A stretch of DNA of 64,000 nt from an uncultured bacterium (GCA_964388155.1 CAYLYH010000007.1:5679-69678); one strand, 5' to 3'; numbered from the stretch's first letter, positions 5,336 to 46,883 are shown. The notes: generated from the letters alone by a model not told the origin. Translations and numbers: made by a program.

Positions 5336-5441
5336 TATCTGTGTAAATACGAAAAAACGCTGTATTCATAGGGTTGAAGATAAGAATCCGGCTTAGGGGT
5401 TTCCAAATGGTTAATGTGGCCAAATAAAATCAAGAGAGACA

Positions 5442-8270
5442 TTACTCCGTTAACAGCGGACGTAAAAACTGTCCGGTATAAGACATTTTATGTTTAACAA
5501 TATTTTCCGGCGTGCCTTCAAATAATACCTTTCCGCCGTCCTCTCCGCCCTCAGGTCCCAAATCGATAATCCAATCTGCGGTTTTAATCACATCAAGGTT
5601 GTGCTCAATAACAATCACTGTATGCCCTTTTTCCACGAGGCGCTGCAAGACGCTAAGGAGCATTCTGACGTCCTCAAAATGAAGTCCTGTCGTCGGTTCA
5701 TCCAAGATGTAGAGTGTTCTGTCATGGCTTTGTCTGGACAATTCAGACGCTAATTTCACTCGTTGAGCTTCACCGCCGGATAGTGTTGTTGCTTGCTGTC
5801 CCAAACGAATATATCCGAGACCGACCTTGTTTAGTGTTGTCAGTTTTTTCCATATTGACGGTATGTTTCTGAAAAAGTCCAGCGCATCTTCCACTGACAT
5901 ATTTAACACATCGGTAATCGTCTTGTCTTTGTATTTCACTTCCAGCGTTTCACGGTTATACCGTCCGCCTTTACACACTTCGCAGGTTACGTACACATCC
6001 GGAAGGAAATTCATTTCAATTTTGATAATTCCGTCTCCGCGGCATGCCTCACATCGTCCGCCTTTTACATTAAATGAAAACCGCCCGGGTTTGTATCCTC
6101 GAAGTTTGGATTCCGGCAGTTGAGAGAACAGATCCCGTATATGTGTGAAAACGCCCGTATATGTTGCAGGATTCGATCGCGGAGTTCGACCAATAGGTTT
6201 TTGGTCTATTTCCACTACTTTATCCAAATGCTCTAAACCATGAATCGTGTCATAACGGAGCGGATATTTTCTTGCTCTGTGAAGATCTCTGGCTAAAATC
6301 GGATATATGGTTTCATTCACTAATGTACTTTTTCCACTCCCGGAGACTCCTGTAACCACTGTAAATGTTCCCAATGGAATTTTAACATCAATCCCATTTA
6401 GATTGTTGCCCGCTGCGCCTTTTAACACCAAATCTTTTTTATGCCCCGACCTCCGAAATTCCGGCTGCTGAATTTTGCGTTTCCCTGACAGATATTTTCC
6501 AGTGATGGACAAATCATGATCAAGTAATTTGGTAGGGGGACCGGAAAAAACAACCTCACCGCCATGTTCCCCTGCTCCCGGGCCTAAATCAATAATATGG
6601 TCGGCCTCCATCATGGTCTCTCGATCATGTTCAACCACTAAAATGGAGTTTCCGAGGTCTCTTAAATGTTTCAAGGTATTCAACAGACGTGTGTTATCTC
6701 TGGGGTGCAAACCGATAGAAGGTTCATCTAAAATATATAACACACCCATTAGCTGAGACCCAATCTGTGTTGCAAGACGAATCCTTTGGGCTTCTCCTCC
6801 GGACAATGTCGTCGCGGAGCGATCCAAGGTCAAATATTCTAACCCTACATTGGCTAAAAACCCAAGTCTTTCTAAACTCTCTTTTAAAATTTGGTCCGCA
6901 ATGGCTGTTTCAGTTTTTGTCAGACTTAACGACGAAAAGAAACCCAACAATTCTTTGATAGAAAGTCTGGAAATATCCCCAAGACTTTTTTCTCCGATTG
7001 TGACAGCCAGACTCTCTTTTCTCAATCGTGCCCCATGACATTCAGGGCATGGACGCATACTCATATACTGTTCTATCCACTCACGAATCCCTGAGGATTT
7101 TGTTTGTTTGTATCGTCGCATCAGATTAGGAATCGCGCCCTCCCAACCGCCGGTGTACGTTCCGGACCAACGAGTGGACGTATAAGACATGGTGAGTTTT
7201 TCTTTTCCTGTTCCATAAAGGAGGATTTCTCTGACTTTAGGATCTAATTTTATCCATGGGGACGAAAAGGCAAATCCATAATGCCTCGCCATACTTTTCA
7301 AAATACTGCCGTACCAGTTTCCGCGGGGTTGTACACCAAGGGGAGTGATTGCGCCTTGGATAAGGGACTTGGTTTTGTCCGGGACCACCAATTCCGGGTC
7401 TACTTCCATGTGAGACCCAAGCCCGTCACATTTTTTACAGGCACCGTAAGGAGAATTAAACGAGAACATCCGCGGGGACAATTCCTCCATGGATACCTCA
7501 CAATGCGGACAGGCAAAGTGCTCACTAAAAAGATGGTCTGTACCCGGCAATTCGTGAACAATAATAAGTCCCGTGCCGATTTTTAAAGCTAACTCCACGG
7601 ATTCTGTCAACCGCTCCCGGGATTTTTTCTCTAAAACCAGGCGATCCACCACGACTTCTATCGTATGTTTTTTGTTTTTTGACAGGCGAATCTTATCATC
7701 GATTGAATAAATTTCACCATCCACGCGTGTGCGCAGAAATCCTTCTTTTTTTATTTCCTCAAAAACGCCCTTGTGCTCTCCCTTTCTTCCACGAACAACA
7801 GGCGCAAGGATGTAAATACGCGCTCCCTGTCCAAACCGTTTGACGGTATCCACAATTTGCTGAACGGTCTGCTTTTGGATTGGCCTCCCGCACTCCCAAC
7901 AATGCGGCCTTCCGATATGCGCATATAGAAGCCGTAGGTAATCATGGATTTCCGTCACAGTCCCCACCGTAGATCTTGGATTTCGGGCAGAGGATTTTTG
8001 TTCAATCGAGATCGCCGGAGACAACCCTTCAATATAATCCATATCAGGTTTTTCCATGAGTCCAAGAAATTGTCTGGCATAAGAAGAAAGAGATTCTACA
8101 TATCGACGCTGGCCTTCCGCGTAAATTGTATCAAAGGCTAACGAAGACTTCCCTGAGCCGGAAAGCCCGGTAATGACGACTAATTTATCTCTGGGAATAT
8201 CTATATCGATATTTTTCAGATTATGTTGGCGGGCTCCGCGAATACGTATTTTATCTATAGCTTTTTTCAT
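5442..8270 (-). CDS. uvrA: excinuclease ABC subunit A
   Basis: 942 aa with two ABC modules ([39 protein letters not shown]), LSGGEAQR twice, and CxxC zinc modules. Confidence 0.98.
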
Positions 8271-11618: not shown

Positions 11619-12065
11619 CAATCAATGAAATAAGAAAGTCTGCCATTACTCACAGAAAGAATATTTGCGTTCTGATTCGGGTATTGCGTAAACTTTCTTA
11701 GGCTGTTTGATTTAATTAAAAATACACAAGAAACCGAATATGATTGAATATTTTCAAATATGATTATTCTGCAAAAGTGGCGGGATATACAGTACCTGGT
11801 AAGCGGTATATACATTGATGAAGCTGGCCCAAAGTAATTATAATAAAAGAATCTCCATAGATTTATTAAATCTTCTAATGGATACACTTCCCATGCAATT
11901 ATCATTATTGAATAACGAGTCAAATAGTGAAATAAATATCCCTGTGTTTTTCCAAGTACTCAATAAAGGTCGTTTGATCACTGAGCTCACCGGAATAAGA
12001 AAAATCTTTATGACCGGTATTAACTATCGTAAACATTTTCCTAGGAATGGAAAAAACATATTTCT

Positions 12066-12300
12066 AACCCGTTGTGCATATTAGAAAAAGAGCAATTAAA
12101 ACAATGTTTATTTCACCCATTCACCGTGAAAATTATGCATAATGTATTCAGAATGTTAAGTATGGAGTGGATTGACCGTGTCAATCCAGTGCAGACATAG
12201 TCGGCACCTGTCCGATCCACAGGCGGGCAGTCCAAAACTATAAATATTGAGACATACTCAGGTCAATTTGTATAAAATCAATTAATATGCACAACGGGTT
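12066..12300. mobile_element. MITE-like non-autonomous element (18-nt perfect TIRs, 6-nt direct flank duplication)
   Basis: The TIRs are AACCCGTTGTGCATATTA (12066-12083) and TAATATGCACAACGGGTT (12283-12300). ATTTCT lies immediately outside both ends (12060-12065 and 12301-12306). The interior is non-coding and rich in hairpins. Confidence 0.7.
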
Positions 12301-12725
12301 ATTTCTATGATTTGGTAGTCGAGCATATATGTTTATCGATAATCCTAAAGACAGTATCTTTGGAAAGTATTATAAATGGGAAGTAAAGGATAGCTATAAA
12401 TCTATTTCTACTATAGAGCCAGAAATCGGTTATCGGTGGACATTAGGTAACAGAGTAGGATTTCATTGTTTGGATTGAACAATGGTGAGTACATAAAAAT
12501 GCTAAAACCAATAGGTCATATGACGATGGAATTGGGATATAAGTTTTGATTAGCAAACACCCAACAATGATCGACTACAGATGCCAAAGGCAGGCAAGTG
12601 ATTAAATTTGCTATTGAGTTTTTCAGTTAACCCACATCAATAGCTCACTCCCGGCTCTTTGCTCCCAGCTCTAAACACATAACTTTTTATGATTAACCGA
12701 TAGCGGAATTTCTGTAATTTCGGTT

Positions 12726-16104: not shown

Positions 16105-17234
16105 TTGATTTTAGCTTAACCGAAGCTCAGTTAGATTTACAGAAACGGGCACGCCAATTTGCCAAAGATGTTGTCGCTCCTGCGGCGGCTGAACACGACC
16201 GCACCGGAGAATTTCCCTTCGAGATTGCGAAACAAGCGTGGAAAGAAGGATTCTTGAATTCACACATCCCTAAAGAATACGGTGGACACGGGCGCGGAAG
16301 TTTGGATACCTGTATTATCGCGGAAGAAATTTCTGCCGCATGCAGTGGAATCGGTATTGCGCTGGATGCCAACTCCCTTGCGCAAGGACCTGTACTCATC
16401 GCCGGGAATGATGACCAAAAACGACGGTATCTCCAAGCGATGACCGAAAAACCGATGTTCGCTTCGTATGCCGTTACCGAACCGGATGCCGGATCCGATG
16501 TCTCCCGGCTATCGACTACAGCAAAAAAAATTAACGACGACACCTATGTCATCAACGGATTAAAATGGTGGATCACCGGTGGCGGTGTTGCCAGTTGGTA
16601 TTTCGTATTGGCAAGGACAGAAAATGGTCCTTCCGGGTTTATTGTGGATGCCGATTCACCGGGAATCATTCGCGGACCAAAGGAAGATAATTTGGGGCAA
16701 CATGCATCCAATACCGTCCGGGTGGCGTTTGAGGATGTACACGTCCCTGCTAAAAACCTTTTATGGAAAGAAGGGGACGGATTTAAAATTGCGATGAAAA
16801 CGTTTGATTATTCCCGTCCGCTGGTTGCAGCAGCGGCAGTTGGGGTTGCCCGTGCAGCCCTTCAGCATGCCACCGCGTATGCCCGGCGACGCAAATGTTT
16901 CAATAAAAAGATTATCAAATATCAAGGTGTCAGTTTTAAGCTGGTCGATATGGCAATGCATGTGGAAACCGCTCGACTGATTACATGGAAATCCGCTTGG
17001 CTTTATGATAACGGATTACCGAATACCAAAGAATCCGCGATGGCAAAAGCCTACGCCGCAGACTACTGCATGAAAGCCACCGTCGATGCCGTGCAAATTA
17101 TGGGCGGATATGGGTATTCGATGGAAGTCCCGATGGAAAAACTCATGCGCGATGCAAAAATCTTTCAGATTTATGAAGGAACCAGCGAAATCCAGCGAAC
17201 GATTATTGTGGCAAGTTTAATGAGGGGACGATGA
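16101..17234 (+). CDS. acyl-CoA dehydrogenase
   Basis: 377 aa containing [17 protein letters not shown] and [35 protein letters not shown], all canonical ACAD motifs. Confidence 0.93.
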
Positions 17235-17854
17235 ATAAACGTAAACTCAAAGCTCGGCAAAATCGGTTCGTCTGCCCCATTTGCCACTTGGAACTCCACA
17301 TGCACGATGTGGATGAAAATGGGCTGGTGGTTTGTCCTGTTTGCGGTGCAGTATTAGAAGTTGTCGAATCTAACGGTCATAAAATTCCGGTGGTGCATGA
17401 TGTGGAAATCAAACGTCCGCAGCCAATGTTTCGTCTGCACACGATTGCAACACATTTTTCCATCGGACTGATGCCTCTTGCACTTTTATCTCAGGTCATC
17501 GCTTTTATTCTTTACATTTACGATGGAGGTGCCTTTGTCCAAAAATCCGTAGAATTTGAATGGATCGGCTATTGGCTGCTCATGATATCTTTTATCGGCG
17601 GACTGGCAACCTTTCTTACCGGTTATGTGGATTGGAAACGAAAATACCGCGGTCGGACTTATACAATTATCACGAAGAAAATTCGTTTATCGATTGTGAT
17701 GTTTGTTTTCCTTGCTGTAGCACTTCTGTTAAGAACGATGGCTGAACCGGGGTTTTCATTGACCTATTCAATTTATTTTGTATCACAGGTTGTCTCTTTG
17801 GGACTCATCGCCACCATCGGTCATTACGGTGGTTTTTTAGTTTACGGGAAATAA
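17231..17854 (+). CDS. LysW-type zinc-ribbon fused to a DUF2231-like membrane domain
   Basis: The N-terminus reads CPICHLELHMHDVDENGLVVCPVCGAVLEV (two CxxC pairs). It is followed by LHTIATHFSIGLMP, four transmembrane spans and a terminal GHYGGFLVYGK. The ORF overlaps the ACAD stop by 4 nt. Confidence 0.6.
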   Translation: MNKRKLKARQNRFVCPICHLELHMHDVDENGLVVCPVCGAVLEVVESNGHKIPVVHDVEIKRPQPMFRLHTIATHFSIGLMPLALLSQVIAFILYIYDGGAFVQKSVEFEWIGYWLLMISFIGGLATFLTGYVDWKRKYRGRTYTIITKKIRLSIVMFVFLAVALLLRTMAEPGFSLTYSIYFVSQVVSLGLIATIGHYGGFLVYGK

Positions 17855-17913
17855 ACTATTTAACATTTTGTAGAAACGTTGCTCCGACATTACCGGGATG
17901 ACAAAAAGTCCAT

Positions 17914-17940
17914 GTCATTCCGAACGCAGTGAGGAATCTA
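17914..17940 (+). repeat. structured repeat family R2 (GTCATTCC-n11-GGAATCT)
   Basis: The sequence is GTCATTCCGAACGCAGTGAGGAATCTA. Related copies lie at 27886-27912(-), 45099-45125(-) and 27816-27854(+), with a variant at 18466-18501(+). Confidence 0.75.
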
Positions 17941-18044
17941 AGTCTTTAATGCCACGGAGTTTTGTTCAGTGTGCAGAAAAAGTTTTGTAAACACGGCCCG
18001 CCTGCATTCTTTGTCGGGCAGGCATGCGTACCGGGTATAATAAC

Positions 18045-18108
18045 GTAGATCCCTCAGTCATTCTTCTCCCGACACTTCGTGCCTGGGACTGTAAGCTTCG
18101 GGATGACA
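18045..18108 (+). repeat. structured repeat family R1, short form
   Basis: The sequence is GTAGATCCCTCAGTCATTCTTCTCCCGACACTTCGTGCCTGGGACTGTAAGCTTCGGGATGACA. It has internal complementarity (GTCAT/ATGAC, CCCGA/TCGGG). Copies lie at 18627-18737(+) and 44950-45039(-). Confidence 0.8.
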
Positions 18109-18137
18109 GGATATCTATTTTCATGCACAGTCAATAA

Positions 18138-18428
18138 TCACTCAAACCATTGTTCAGCTAAGTCCAGCCAACCTTTATTCTGTTCTTCTATTAAACGAAT
18201 TTTCTTTTCTCTCCGCCAACCTTTGATGCGTTTTTCATACTCTAATGTCTCCCATACATCGTTGGTTTCATCATAATATACCAGACGTGTAATATTATAT
18301 CGCTTAGTAAATCCATCAGCGATTTTTAATTTATGCTGCCAGACACGCCCTTCTAAATCGCTTGTAACTCCCGTATAAATTCGACGGTTTTGACTTGCCA
18401 TAATATAAACGTAATAAGTTTTTTCCAT
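18138..18428 (-). CDS. GIY-YIG nuclease family protein (UPF0213-like, 96 aa)
   Basis: YYVYIMASQNRRIYTGVTSDLEGRVWQHK...RLVYYDE...AL.YEKRIKGWRREKK is the GIY-YIG core. Confidence 0.9.
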   Translation of the reverse strand: MEKTYYVYIMASQNRRIYTGVTSDLEGRVWQHKLKIADGFTKRYNITRLVYYDETNDVWETLEYEKRIKGWRREKKIRLIEEQNKGWLDLAEQWFE

Positions 18429-18465
18429 GTTGTATTTTACACTATTTTACCCAAAACAACAAATT

Positions 18466-18501
18466 GTCATTTCGATCCGCCGGCTGGCGGAGAGAAATCT
18501 A
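18466..18501 (+). repeat. R2-variant repeat
   Basis: GTCATTTCGATCCGCCGGCTGGCGGAGAGAAATCTA forms an ATTTC/GAAAT outer stem and a CCGCC/GGCGG inner stem. A partial copy lies at 45192-45207(-). Confidence 0.65.
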
Positions 18502-18626
18502 CTTTGTTTTGGGCACGGACTTAGGCTTTGTAAACAAATCATAAGTACAGGGATTAAATATAGAATTTTTCATTTTGTGTATGGAAAAAATCTTGTGTAC
18601 AAATCATACATACCGAGTTTGATTAT

Positions 18627-18737
18627 GTAGATCCCTCAGTCGTTCCCCCGACACTTCGTGTTTCCATCTGGCGGGCTTGCCCGCCTCTGGAGGGGTCTGA
18701 GGACGTGTCCGGGGCTGTAAGCTCATTCGGGATGACA
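18627..18737 (+). repeat. structured repeat family R1, long form
   Basis: It has the same ends as 18045-18108, plus an internal insertion of about 45 nt (TTTCCATCTGGCGGGCTTGCCCGCCTCTGGAGGGGTCTGAGGACGTG). Confidence 0.8.
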
Positions 18738-18740
18738 TAC

Positions 18741-18779
18741 AAAAAAAAGCCCCGTACACGAAGTGCCGGGGCTTTTTTT
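18741..18779. terminator. bidirectional intrinsic terminator downstream of the TBDR gene
   Basis: The sequence AAAAAAAA-GCCCCG-tacacgaagtgc-CGGGGC-TTTTTTT lies 21 nt past the TBDR stop. Confidence 0.75.
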
Positions 18780-18799
18780 CTAAGCTAAATAATCAGCTT

Positions 18800-21589
18800 T
18801 TAGAATCTAACTGAAATACCTGCATTAAATGTACGCGGTAACCCAAAGAATACTTCAGCATCATCAGCTAAGTGTTCTTTTCCGTTACTCGTGTATGCGT
18901 TGTATTTACTGTTGTCGACTGCATCCTGAATATAGGTTTGGTCTGTCAGATTAAATACATGCACAAATGCCTGTAGTTTCGTTCCGATAAAGCTGAACGG
19001 AAGATCATAGGTTGCATGCAAGTCAACTTTATGATAATCCGGTGCCTGCCAACTTTGTCCGCGGTCTGCGGTGGCTTCTGTTCCGTCAAACTCACGACTC
19101 AGCGGATCCCAATCGGCAAAATGATTGGAATACACATTTAACACTGCTTGAATCGTCAACCCTTTCATTGGGAAGAGAGACCCGGCAAATGCATAACCAG
19201 TCTGGGGCATATCACCAATTTTGAGTCCCTTGATGGAGTACATATAGTAGTAGGTTGTATCATTGTCAATGTCTCTGTATTCTCCGTCAACATCTTCAAG
19301 ATATTCCCACTGCCCGACGCTGATAGAGGCGTCAAGACGAAGGATGGGTGCCGGCTGTACAGAAATTTCAAATTCAACTCCGCGATGAGATTGGTTCAAT
19401 CCCGTCAGGAAGAGAATGTCTGTGTCGCCACTGGAACCTTGTCCCGGTTCTACATTCATTGTTAATGTACGATCTTTCCACTGCATGTCGTAGAAATTCA
19501 GTTTAGCGGCGGCTTTACCATCACTTGAATAGATATTCAAGCCACCTTCATAAGCGGTGAATTTCTCATTCTCAGGGTCTTGTGAAACAATACCGTTATA
19601 GTCATCGATAACTGCATCTAAAATCGGAGGTTTGCCAATGTAGCCGAAGTTTCCGAATACGTCTATATTGTCGCTGATCTTGTACAGACCGCCACCTTTA
19701 ACTTGGTAAGAACCAATAGCATCGGTTTCAAGATAAAGTTCTTTCCCTGTCCCCGCACCTGCGTCATCAAGTACTTCTGTAAAGTGATCGGCATATGTGT
19801 AGGAAATGGTGGAGTATCCGGTCATACCATAAAGTGACAGAGCGTTCTTGGTATACTCAAACTGTCCGAAGAAGCCAAGCCAATCAACTGTATTGGTATT
19901 ATGGTAGGCGATGATGTCTCCAAGTCCCTTCTGTTGAGATTCCGGAGTTGTATCAAAGTCATTTCCGTCGTATACGTAATAGTCACCACCTAAAAGGTCA
20001 CGAACTTCTCGAGCATGTTCAATCTCTGCTGTACGCCAATCCAAACCGAATTGTGTTTTAAAGTTATCACTGATGTCATAATTCAGCTTTGAAATTGCGC
20101 CCAATGTCCACTGACGGTTAATGCTGTTTCTCAGAATACCAACTGACTCTTGATCTTCTTTGACCTTCGCACTTTTATCAACATAGAACGTACCGGCATC
20201 CGCTTGATTCATAGCAATCGTTGCATTCCAATCACGTGTCCACGGAGAGCGACCATAGTAGTATTTATAGTCATCATCACCAAGATTACCGTCGGCATCC
20301 ATGGTGTAAATTGAACCGTAAGTTCCTGTACCGCCACCCGATCCGCCGGACCAGTAAAAGATGGTTGATAATCTCATTTGGTCATTGAAGGTCTTGAACC
20401 AGTTTAGGTTTACAAGCGGTTTATGAAAGAAATTTTCTCTTTCATTTAGAAAATCAGGGTCATGACGCTCCATCGTTCGAGCACCATACATATACCAATA
20501 CTGCTTTCCTTTGTAATCGGAGCTGACCGGTGACCAGTTCTGATTGAAGTACCGTCCTACGTCCGCAAATTTACCGCCAATCGCTGCTGTATCATAAAAG
20601 TCTAGTGATTCGGCAAATTCAGGGTCGTATGCGGCAATATTCTGTTTGTACAGACTTTGTCCGTGGCGCTGAGGTGCACCAATGGCATAAAGCTCAAAAC
20701 GGTTCTTTGCATTTAATGCATAGCTAGCACCAAAGTAATATGCCCAGGCATCTGTCCATGTTTTATCAACAACACCGTCACCTGTTTTACGAACGATGGT
20801 TGCACTAAACGCCATTTTGTCTCCAATGAGACCGGTGTTGTAGTTAATTGTGGATTTCAAGAACCCTCCGGCTCCGATTTCTTGTTTGAACTTTCCGCCG
20901 CGTTTAAGGCCAGTCGGATCCGTGATGATGTTCATGGTTCCACCAATAGATGGCGTCGCCAGATTAACAGCACTGAGTCCGCGCTGAACCTGAATGGAAG
21001 ATGTTGCGTCACCGACTCCATCCCAGTTAGACCAGTAAACCCATCCGTTTTCCATATCATTCTGCGGAACACCATTAATCATAACAGCAACGTTGCGCTG
21101 GTTAAATCCACGAATATTGATTCGGGCATCACCGGCTCCGCCACCTTGTTGGGTCGCATAGACACTTGGGGTTACATTGAGCGCCATCGGAATATCCTGG
21201 GATCCCAGGCGTAGTTCCATGTCTTCTTTATCAATGTTTGAATACGCAACAGGTGTATTCCGCGTTGCCCGGGATGCCAGCACTTCTAAGGCAGTAAGTT
21301 CTATAGCTGTTGATTCCAGAGCAAAGGTCACTTTTCCTGATGCTGCCAGGGATTGTGAAGCGTACCCTATCATGGTAGCTGTTAGTGTAGATCCCTCCGG
21401 AACGCCTACGATTGTGAATGCACCATCGGTATCAGCGGCTGCTCCGAGTAATGTTCCTTCTACCACGACATTAGCACCCACGAGCGGGTCTCCTGTTCCG
21501 GCATCTGTAACGGTTCCCGTTACATTTATTTGTGCCATAAGGGTCAATGGTAAAGAAAGAACCATGAGGAATGTGATGACTCTTTTCAT
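18800..21589 (-). CDS. TonB-dependent receptor with N-terminal CarboxypepD_reg-like domain
   Basis: It has a signal peptide, then INVTGTVTDAGTGDPLVGANVVVEG...DGAFTIVGVPEGSTLTATMIGYASQ, a plug region (IRGFNQRNVAVMINGVP) and a long barrel ending in GISVRF. Confidence 0.9.
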   Translation of the reverse strand: MKRVITFLMVLSLPLTLMAQINVTGTVTDAGTGDPLVGANVVVEGTLLGAAADTDGAFTIVGVPEGSTLTATMIGYASQSLAASGKVTFALESTAIELTALEVLASRATRNTPVAYSNIDKEDMELRLGSQDIPMALNVTPSVYATQQGGGAGDARINIRGFNQRNVAVMINGVPQNDMENGWVYWSNWDGVGDATSSIQVQRGLSAVNLATPSIGGTMNIITDPTGLKRGGKFKQEIGAGGFLKSTINYNTGLIGDKMAFSATIVRKTGDGVVDKTWTDAWAYYFGASYALNAKNRFELYAIGAPQRHGQSLYKQNIAAYDPEFAESLDFYDTAAIGGKFADVGRYFNQNWSPVSSDYKGKQYWYMYGARTMERHDPDFLNERENFFHKPLVNLNWFKTFNDQMRLSTIFYWSGGSGGGTGTYGSIYTMDADGNLGDDDYKYYYGRSPWTRDWNATIAMNQADAGTFYVDKSAKVKEDQESVGILRNSINRQWTLGAISKLNYDISDNFKTQFGLDWRTAEIEHAREVRDLLGGDYYVYDGNDFDTTPESQQKGLGDIIAYHNTNTVDWLGFFGQFEYTKNALSLYGMTGYSTISYTYADHFTEVLDDAGAGTGKELYLETDAIGSYQVKGGGLYKISDNIDVFGNFGYIGKPPILDAVIDDYNGIVSQDPENEKFTAYEGGLNIYSSDGKAAAKLNFYDMQWKDRTLTMNVEPGQGSSGDTDILFLTGLNQSHRGVEFEISVQPAPILRLDASISVGQWEYLEDVDGEYRDIDNDTTYYYMYSIKGLKIGDMPQTGYAFAGSLFPMKGLTIQAVLNVYSNHFADWDPLSREFDGTEATADRGQSWQAPDYHKVDLHATYDLPFSFIGTKLQAFVHVFNLTDQTYIQDAVDNSKYNAYTSNGKEHLADDAEVFFGLPRTFNAGISVRF

Positions 21590-27776: not shown

Positions 27777-27815
27777 AGTGTTGTCCTTTTTTGTTTAATA
27801 ACCTTCTTGGTTATT

Positions 27816-27912
27816 GTCATCACTTGAGTGTAGTGGAACGAAACGAAGGATCTCTAATCAATCCTTTGTCTTACATCACTGTTTGAGATTCTTCGCTCCG
27901 CTCCAGAATGAC
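27816..27912. repeat. inverted pair of R2-like units between znuA and znuB
   Basis: GTCATCACTTGAGTGTAGTGGAACGAAACGAAGGATCTC (27816-27854, +) is paired with AGATTCTTCGCTCCGCTCCAGAATGAC (27886-27912, i.e. R2 on the minus strand). Confidence 0.6.
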
Positions 27913-27936
27913 ATACTCTATTGTATAAATTGTTGT

Positions 27937-43235: not shown

Positions 43236-43565
43236 TGATGAAGCAATGCAAACTATATCCCAGCAGAATTCTAATAAAATACTGGGGGACAAATTACAGC
43301 TTTGGAGTACGGGAGTCAATCAATACCGACACAAATCCTCATTAGTTTGGGCAATGATAAACCGCCTGTTTAAAGGTAGCGGACAGGGAATATTAGAACC
43401 TGTAATTTATCCGGAAGACATTACTGTTAAGGAAATAATTTTCAGGGTGAATAAGTATAATAAAAATAGTGTTAATCGCTATTTTTCTAATATGCACAGT
43501 GGTTAATTGTTCTTATTTTCTATCGTGTTTTTCTTCTCTTATCCACACAATAAACAAGGACATTT

Positions 43566-44753: not shown

Positions 44754-44949
44754 AACAATAGGCTAAGTTCCCTGATATACAACACATGGTTGGATGTGCG
44801 GTAATTAATCTTCATTCACTCTACGCTTCTCTATGAATGATAAATTCATTACGATTGACAAGGTGGTGAGTGGTTTTTACCGTCATGCTCTGATCACCAT
44901 ATTTCCTTTTTCCTAAGAGAATGATTGGTCAAAAAAACAAACCACTATA

Positions 44950-45039
44950 TCATCCCGAAGCTTACAGTCCCGGGCACGTCTTCAGATTCCGCCTTAGGGT
45001 AACACGAAGTGTCGTGAGAAGAATGACTGAGGGATCTAC
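44950..45039 (-). repeat. R1 repeat, third copy (reverse orientation)
   Basis: The reverse complement reads GTAGATCCCTCAGTCATTCTTCTCACGACACTTCGTG...CCCGGGACTGTAAGCTTCGGGATGA, with a 28-nt internal insertion related to the one in the 18627-18737 copy. Confidence 0.8.
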
Positions 45040-45098
45040 GTAATTAAACCTGATACAATTGAATAAAACACAAAACTTAACTCTGCATACAAAAAATG

Positions 45099-45125
45099 TA
45101 GATTCTTCACTCCGTTCAGAATGAC
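45099..45125 (-). repeat. R2 repeat copy (reverse orientation)
   Basis: TAGATTCTTCACTCCGTTCAGAATGAC is the reverse complement of GTCATTCTGAACGGAGTGAAGAATCTA. Confidence 0.75.
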
Positions 45126-45318
45126 AGTGTTTTTTTTGATCATTATAAAACCCTAAAGGGAGCAGACGGACCCGCCGCTATGCTCTCGGCAGGCGGATCG
45201 AAATGACAGCGACAGGTGAATAGTAGAATTGGTTGATTAGATACACAATGCTGTGATGAACCTTAAATAAGAATATTTATAATTAAGGGATACACTGCAT
45301 AACTTAATTATATATTAT

Positions 45319-46733: not shown

Positions 46734-46858
46734 GATTCCGGGCTATTTGAAAAAAACAGCATCAAGAACACCCATAAATATGGGTTGCCAACCGAGTCCT
46801 TTGAGGATCACGGTGGTTATTCCGATAAACGGAAGATGTGCGGTCAGCCGAAAAATAC

Positions 46859-46883
46859 AAACCTGCTTTTCGGCGGGTTTTTT
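46859..46883 (+). terminator. intrinsic terminator candidate (orphan)
   Basis: AAACCTGC-ttttcg-GCGGGTTT is followed by a T-run. No ORF I would call lies between this terminator and the previous one. Confidence 0.5.

Follow-up and report, generated by a model that had tools for sequence, protein, structure and literature searches.

The stretch of DNA analysed here, referred to as the window, comprises 64,000 nucleotides (nt) from an uncultured bacterium (GCA_964388155.1, CAYLYH010000007.1:5679-69678). It is part of a marine Marinimicrobia genome (G000; 2.33 Mb in 70 contigs) and carries a tiny GIY-YIG nuclease gene that lies, on the minus strand, between two composite repeat units of the same orientation, A and B (Table 1). 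Each unit consists of an element named R2, a spacer and an element named R1. A third complete unit, C, is located elsewhere in the window, in the opposite orientation and without a nuclease gene. A preliminary description of the window had reported this arrangement, and the 96-amino-acid open reading frame (ORF) and the units were all found where it had placed them, the bounds that it gave for units A (17914-18108), B (18466-18737) and C (44950-45125) being refined to those of Table 1. Our analysis indicates that the gene very probably encodes a nuclease of the Ssn family, and that the surrounding repeats are its cognate hairpins, i.e., SRMs or members of the CGTC/TGTC-tagged REP superfamily. 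The gene is tied to this family by reciprocal best hits, by the phylogenetic tree, by the enrichment of hairpins around its homologues in 80 species and by the covariation of the hairpin stems. These same results support the core idea of the preliminary description, according to which the nuclease would be the cognate enzyme of the dispersed hairpins that surround it.

The Ssn family comprises single-domain GIY-YIG proteins of about 94 amino acids (CDD cd10448) that bind an oriented hairpin repeat, named NTS in Neisseria (CGTCATTCCCGCGMAVGCGGGAATCYRG) and SRM in general, and that cut single-stranded DNA (ssDNA) just upstream of the repeat, whereas they do not act on the opposite strand, on double-stranded DNA or on RNA (Chenal et al., 2025, Nat Commun 16:2388; PMC11893778). 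Four Ssn enzymes have been characterised in vitro, and SRMs were found near 71% of the Ssn homologues, flanking the gene on both sides in 42% (PMC11893778). The REP/RAYT-like layout with a different nuclease, which had been noticed in the window from the outset, holds, and the analogy had already been published for Ssn, since Chenal et al. liken the NTS-ssnA-NTS arrangement to an insertion sequence (IS), to IS200/IS605 and to REP/BIME (PMC11893778). On the side of the repeats, the CGTC REPs frequently carry a TGTC tag, have stems that open with AT and occur mostly as inverted dimers with spacers of 20-100 bp; dRS3 of Neisseria is one of them, and no transposase or partner enzyme was known for this group in 2013 (Di Nocera, De Gregorio and Rocco, 2013, BMC Genomics 14:522; PMC3733652).

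PF01541 is the sole Pfam match of the window protein (E=5e-12, residues 5-76). The NCBIfam search assigned no family to it, and its match to the UPF0213 structures is weak (E 8.6e-4). When the protein was aligned with 15 homologues from several phyla, residues Y8, Y18, G20, R28, H32, E65 and N84 were unchanged, and all of these except G20 are predicted to be catalytic-type residues.

The link to the Ssn family was assessed by proxy, searching the exact NTS pattern in 401 Burkholderiales genomes. This pattern marks 76 of them (control, 0). Searched against three NTS-rich genomes, the window protein each time found its best match in the product of a gene of about 95 codons with exact NTS flanks (44-50% identity, E 1e-20 to 1e-22). 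In the reverse search, the NTS-flanked proteins hit the window gene with E values of 1e-19 to 1e-21, versus 5e-7 or weaker for the tRNA-linked paralogues described below; the window protein is their reciprocal best hit. The IQ-TREE phylogeny grouped the window protein and the NTS-flanked proteins in one clade (support 97/87) and placed the tRNA-linked paralogues in a separate one (99/95).

R1 and R2 had been proposed as two distinct elements, and this proposal did not survive a comparison of their ends. Read on the minus strand, R1 has the form TGTCATCCCGA...CTGAGGGATCTAC, while R2 reads TGTCATTCCGA...GAGGAATCTA(A/C) on the plus strand. Since these termini agree, both represent a single hairpin family in opposite orientations, R1 carrying an insert of 40-90 nt at the apex (loop). 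The hairpin can be written as TGTC-AT-NNN...N'N'N'-AT-CTA, the tail being CT(A/C), and is composed of an unpaired 5' TGTC tag, a stem that opens with AT and contains conserved G-A steps, a variable apex and a CTA tail. The stem is formed by 5 bp, a tandem G-A and 2 bp closed by a GNA-type loop, and occurs in the variants ATTCC/GGAAT, ATTTC/GAAAT, ATTCT/AGAAT and ATCCC/GGGAT.

Given that R1 and R2 are one family in inverted orientation, each composite unit is an inverted hairpin pair with its TGTCAT tags pointing outward. The paired hairpins are separated by about 100-125 nt in the composite units and by about 30-125 nt across all the inverted pairs, a group made up of the three units of the window, the C8 and C55 copies and the pair at 27815-27913. 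The latter had been described as isolated R2 units (27816-27912). The hairpins are indeed present there, but they are not isolated, since they form an inverted pair (plus-strand hairpin, 27815-27854; minus-strand hairpin, 27884-27913) of a sister subtype with CTC tails (ATCTC). There are two hairpins on each side of the nuclease gene, all of them within 310 nt; the outer ones have their tags outward, and the inner pair, nearest the gene, have them towards the gene. R1_A starts 29 nt past the stop codon of the nuclease gene, and R2_A has GTCATTCC...GGAATC in common with the published NTS. The two copies beside the gene are 197-273 nt long, and units A, B and C share 86-89% identity over aligned columns (89% between units C and A). 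They differ in length because both the spacer and the loop of R1 contain long indels, and the spacers align only partially.

Table 1. Features of the nuclease locus, other repeats of the window and tRNA-linked GIY-YIG genes of the same genome. Positions are those of the window unless a contig is given.
Feature	Position	Strand	Remarks
ssn-type GIY-YIG gene	18138..18428	minus	96 amino acids, single domain; ORF and Pfam PF01541
DUF2231-type gene	17231-17854		left of the cassette
R1 remnant	17893..17903	plus	CCGGGATGACA; left over from the 3' end of an additional R1, to the left of unit A
Unit A	17913-18109	plus	composite repeat
R2_A	17913..17940	plus	short SRM-like hairpin TGTCATTCCGAACGCAGTGAGGAATCTA; outer, downstream of the gene, tag away from the gene
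Spacer of unit A	17941..18044	plus	TTTGTAAACA, GC hairpin, TATAAT
R1_A	18045..18108	minus	R2-type hairpin TGTCATCCCGA...GAGGGATCTAC, 41-nt loop insert
Unit B	18465-18737	plus	composite repeat
R2_B	18465..18501	plus	apex with a GC-rich stem, TGTCATTTCGA-TCCGCCGGCTGGCGGA-GAGAAATCTA; lies upstream, 37 nt from the ATG
Spacer of unit B	18502..18626	plus	
R1_B	18627..18737	minus	inverted hairpin, 88-nt structured loop insert; outer, upstream of the gene
GC hairpin	18747..18774	.	between A and T runs; sequence and terminator-like alignments
Inverted hairpin pair	27815..27913		sister subtype, TGTCAT...GGATCTC / GAGATTCT...ATGACA
Unit C	44948-45126	minus	complete composite unit without nuclease gene, opposite to A and B
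R1_C	44948-45040		within unit C, degenerate TATCAT tag
R2_C	45098-45126	minus	within unit C
Extra TGTCATTTCGA hairpin	45167..45208	minus	adjoining unit C, start like R2_B
tRNA-Met-linked GIY-YIG gene	contig C14:30397-30762 (L037:1498-1851)		
tRNA-Leu-linked GIY-YIG gene	contig C47:5607-5938		
tRNA-Gly-linked GIY-YIG gene	contig C25:11737-12108		
tRNA-Ala-linked GIY-YIG gene	contig C29:1-177		cut by the contig end

A different reading of R1 takes this element and its upstream spacer as a small-RNA (sRNA) gene, or as a terminator or regulatory RNA, beside which the nuclease cassette landed, duplicating R1 in the way that the tRNA-linked paralogues duplicate tRNA 3' halves. Several features would fit this proposal: TATAAT-like boxes that precede R1 by 5 nt in unit A, runs of T that follow it in units B and C as well as in the C55 copy, a single T-G wobble that favours the plus strand in the C8 copy and the duplicated target found on both sides of the tRNA-linked cassettes in this genome. 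We consider it very improbable, because the tag and tail of R1 are those of R2 on the opposite strand, because in relatives both partners of the pair are short and lack a conserved interior, and because Rfam, at gathering and at permissive thresholds, returned nothing on the repeats, while the interior of R1 varies by large indels. A tRNA-like or sRNA gene was thus set aside as the main reading of R1.

The association between the nuclease and these hairpins was surveyed in 80 named genomes from about 20 phyla, with homologues that are 45-69% identical. A tagged hairpin was found within 400 nt of the gene in 71 of the 80 homologues (89%), and on both sides in 52. The density of hairpins was 3.79/kb near the genes versus 0.27/kb farther out, i.e., a 14-fold enrichment, and the tags-outward layout was the commonest among the homologues flanked on both sides (25/52). 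In 98 loci, 293 of the 971 GTCAT-NNN...NNN-ATC candidates had complementary stem arms, compared with 15 expected, and they comprised at least 10 stem types, so that the stem is kept by covariation. It is this comparative signal, and not thermodynamics, that carries the argument for the hairpins: their structure counts, their sequence does not. In 40 relatives of the window genome, the proteins that are 40-93% identical to the window protein and have no nearby tRNA are almost all encoded between TGTCAT-type hairpins on both sides. The inverted-pair organisation is also found in these relatives, where both partners are short and without a conserved interior, and across the order-level relatives the pairing of nuclease and hairpins recurs with co-varying stems. 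The ORF tails of some homologues run into the hairpins.

Within the window genome itself, a manual tally gave about 18-20 recognisable hairpins. Four of these approximately 20 hairpins lie within 310 nt of the nuclease gene, compared with about 0.01 expected, and this clustering is far beyond chance. The pattern GTCATTYYGA-N3-14-GARRAATC has seven matches in this genome, whereas its reversed control has none in all 41 genomes searched. The hairpin scan that we adopted requires a 5-nt stem, the tag and the tail (looser and stricter scans were discarded); over the complete genome, long loops make it noisy, with 27 matches compared with 12-18 in simulated genomes. Contigs C8 and C55 carry further full composite units, and contigs C3 and C29 partial ones; composite units found at unlinked places and in a congener (G001) share 87-96% identity. 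The existence of repeats without the gene (44948-45208, 27815-27913 and other contigs) would be compatible with a mere coincidence, i.e., with a generic GIY-YIG gene located in a repeat-rich intergenic region. We regard such a coincidence as extremely unlikely in view of the 14-fold enrichment across the 80 species, of the four hairpins gathered at the gene and of a pairing that is repeated across the order with co-varying stems.

The window genome encodes four other small GIY-YIG proteins in addition to UvrC. All four genes immediately follow a tRNA gene of the same strand and start 7-80 nt past its 3' end. Where the locus is fully assembled (three of the four), the far side of the nuclease gene carries a degenerate copy of the tRNA 3' part, with a foreign hairpin replacing the T-loop. 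In the 40 relatives, the proteins that are 30-39% identical to the window protein likewise adjoin tRNA genes, often in tandem. We have found no publication describing these cassettes. They resemble the window cassette in having a nuclease gene of about 80-100 codons between direct copies of a structured sequence, but they differ from it in belonging to a separate clade (99/95) with 30-39% identity to the window protein, in being flanked by tRNA 3' copies and in lacking TGTCAT hairpins. The preliminary description had reasoned that paralogues without R1/R2 flanks would speak against the pairing, and four such paralogues do exist; since they form a separate, tRNA-linked clade, they do not bear on the Ssn-type gene. 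This sister clade rather provides a natural contrast, with the same fold and size and a different structured target.

Two further observations were made at the tRNA-linked loci. Past the 5' end of the tRNA-Ala gene (contig C29:178-290) there is a pseudo-tRNA in which the anticodon and D arms are each replaced by TCCCGA-loop-TCGGGA; many TGTCAT-type hairpins of relatives (for instance L015, L017, L020) have this mini-hairpin at their apex, suggesting that it is a small element nesting in hairpin loops. On contig C47, a run of N (5407-5507) lies inside an apparent second tandem copy of the tRNA-Leu-linked cassette, and about 100 nt on each side of this run repeat the sequence of the intact copy.

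The DUF2231-type gene located to the left of the cassette has orthologues in three congeners, and these allowed us to examine the locus in the absence of the cassette. In G002 and G003, only 14-20 nt separate this gene from a convergent SDR-like gene, i.e., the site is empty. In G001, the flank is 97% identical and the contig ends 27 nt past the DUF2231 gene; its nuclease gene, which is 93% identical, is found on a short contig that terminates, on the opposite side, in the 3' end of the SDR-like gene. In the window genome, the DUF2231 gene is followed by the cassette and, on the far side, by a TonB-dependent receptor gene. This arrangement is the same in 24 independent metagenome contigs, and thus it is not a chimera. 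The SDR-like gene of the window genome is located on contig C16 (38700-39050), adjoining decayed remnants of TGTCAT hairpins; compared with window positions 17855-18800, this placement points to a rearrangement whose breakpoints fall among the clustered repeats.

The closest copy of the cassette in G002 is at a different, variable locus. A second empty-site comparison attempted at that locus failed, as the homologous interval of the window genome holds another gene and the region is variable. In the order, the number of cassette copies per genome ranges from 0 to about 5, with several copies in some genomes (G011, G002). From the arrangements of the DUF2231 and SDR-like genes in the congeners, the cassette behaves as an accessory unit with rearrangement breakpoints at the repeats, and we infer from these genome comparisons that it is a patchy unit that is gained and lost rather than a conserved host gene.

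Several observations weigh against the assignment of the gene and its repeats to the Ssn/SRM system, or against the view of the cassette as a unit that comes and goes. First, the published degenerate SRM pattern, HGTCWYN(0-2)YYVSBRHN(0-5)WNVSBRGN(0-2)RNCYNB, matches none of R2_A, R2_B, R2_C or the other hairpins described here; it has four matches in the window genome, none of them in the repeat family, whereas NTS itself matches. The pattern misses these hairpins because it is written for longer, GC-rich stems (9 bp in NTS, compared with 5 bp, the G-A and 2 bp here). It was made by hand from 29 genomes (PMC11893778), and we have treated it as a search aid and not as a definition of the family; despite the mismatch, the window hairpins share with NTS the GTCAT tag, the AT-first stem and the ATC tail. 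Second, the short hairpins are only marginally stable as naked ssDNA (nearest-neighbour -1.7 kcal/mol, z about 0). Thermodynamics alone gives them no support, since only R2_B (-9.7 kcal/mol, z=-3.2) and R1_B (-19.5 kcal/mol, z=-1.9) exceed the shuffled sequences. Third, two genomes, G017 and G031, carry 7-8 hairpins of the window subtype and no Ssn-type gene was detected in them; these are the two cases of hairpins without the gene when copy number was compared with gene presence across the order, using a pattern that represents one stem subtype only. Fourth, there is one clean comparison of a filled and an empty site only, and it is unrooted, so that it can be read as a gain or as a loss. Fifth, none of the 24 contigs shows a population variant of the locus, and thus there is no sign of ongoing movement.

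The nuclease and its repeats are an already known kind of system, in which the nuclease type was described in 2025 and the repeats in 2013, found here with a variant of the hairpin that escapes the published pattern. As in the Ssn/NTS system, the protein is a single-domain GIY-YIG nuclease (94-96 amino acids), the gene lies between oriented hairpins with a 5' (C/T)GTCAT tag and an ATC tail, and the repeats are also dispersed without the gene. Unlike that system, the host is a member of the Marinimicrobia with about 20 hairpins instead of hundreds, the stems consist of 5 bp, a tandem G-A and 2 bp with a GNA-type loop instead of 9 GC-rich bp, one partner of each pair carries the 40-90-nt loop insert and the hairpins nearest the gene have their tags towards it. 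With the CGTC/TGTC REPs, the window hairpins share the terminal TGTC, the AT-first stem, the short unpaired tail, the inverted dimers and the lack of an associated HUH transposase. The spacers of CGTC REPs can be conserved and structured, and measure 20-100 bp compared with about 30-125 nt in the window genome. Those REPs, with four described families, have stems of 8-9 bp and a CCA tail, whereas the window hairpins have 5 bp, longer variable loops and CTA/CTC; the CGTC REP survey (PMC3733652) took in no Marinimicrobia. The GTAG found at the start of R1 does not relate it to the GTAG-tagged REPs, as it is part of the CTAC tail and specific to the genus, relatives having GAGAT.

By analogy with the four enzymes characterised in vitro, the window protein likely binds TGTCAT...ATCT ssDNA and cuts 5' of the tag. 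It would bind this strand when it becomes single-stranded, as in replication, repair, uptake or transcription bubbles; judging by homology, it would cut a few nt 5' of the tag, and it would leave duplex DNA, RNA and the complementary strand uncut.

What such an activity serves can be read in more than one way. The succession of hairpin pair, gene and hairpin pair could constitute an autonomous mobile element, with the GIY-YIG protein as transposase or homing enzyme and the gene-less units as miniature derivatives, a reading that goes back to the preliminary description, that was also raised in the discussion of Chenal et al. (PMC11893778) and that we consider rather unlikely here. The layout does recall REPtrons and IS200/IS605, in which a small nuclease gene lies within its own hairpin repeats, recognised as ssDNA and forming inverted dimers, and the IS-like tags-outward layout is the commonest in the 80-species survey (25/52). 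The empty site in two congeners together with a different locus in G002, the several copies in G011 and G002, the 87-96% identity among composite units at unlinked places and in G001, and the homologue ORF tails that run into hairpins point in the same direction. Against it, the flanked gene encodes a GIY-YIG protein and not the HUH/Y1 (RAYT) transposase of REPtrons, and the inverted hairpins would put two cuts on opposite strands, unlike IS200/IS605. Neither a target-site duplication nor a conserved insertion site was found at the unit ends; unlike classical MITEs and ISs, the five full units show no direct duplication at their ends, and the only gene is that of the nuclease. Moreover, the locus is fixed in the sampled population (24 contigs), the hairpins persist without the gene in G017 and G031, and recombination between repeats could equally explain the spread.

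We know of no GIY-YIG enzyme with strand-transfer activity. In a doubtful but conceivable variant of the autonomous reading, the cassette would be self-mobilising in that the nuclease would cut exposed or cruciform hairpins, and repair or recombination would copy the cassette between hairpin-marked sites. With the same low probability, this mechanism would also cover the spread of the gene-less units, the filled and empty sites of the congeners being its trace. If true, it would represent a mode of transposition or homing with a new class of enzyme.

Alternatively, the nuclease might serve a domesticated host function, as proposed for Neisseria, cutting incoming or exposed hairpin-bearing ssDNA and thereby modulating recombination or transformation around the marked loci. 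SsnA of N. meningitidis does lower the integration of NTS-flanked transforming DNA (PMC11893778). The approximately 20 hairpins of the window genome are far below the hundreds of Neisseria. Many relatives lack the gene, among them a 96%-complete congener, and its location is not conserved. Because of these few hairpins, the patchy gene and the unconserved location, a maintained host function fits poorly, and we also hold it to be an unlikely explanation. Otherwise, the cassette may be a selfish passenger that spreads by recombination between repeats.

Additional observations concern the surroundings of the locus and other sequences. The GC hairpin at 18747..18774 separates unit B from the TonB-dependent receptor gene, which is convergent, and resembles a terminator acting in both directions. 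Elsewhere in the window, two intergenic sites far from each other, at 12073-12136 and 43435-43498, match in inverted orientation over 64 nt (84%); the first of them overlaps a MITE-like element (12060-12306), and the match is unrelated to the TGTCAT hairpins. The Rfam scan located a SAM-I/IV riboswitch at 46754-46866 (46.3 bits, above the gathering score). In one NTS-rich Burkholderiales genome (G160, L130:1318-1480), the ssn gene has NTS flanks, and two NTS copies on its upstream side enclose a short in-frame fragment in which the 5' part of the gene is repeated (...DRNGTLYVGVISNLVK), i.e., a partial duplication beside its own repeat.

The assignment of the window gene, probable as it is from the comparisons described, would extend the pairing of Ssn and SRM to the Marinimicrobia. 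Since the published pattern misses the variant with a short stem, tandem G-A and variable apex, the published counts of SRM-associated homologues may be too low. The one clean filled/empty comparison among congeners also lends some, if modest, weight to the view that such cassettes are gained and lost as whole units. Each pair of nuclease and hairpin is also a candidate for a new specificity of ssDNA cleavage, a practical use that was named by the discoverers of the family.

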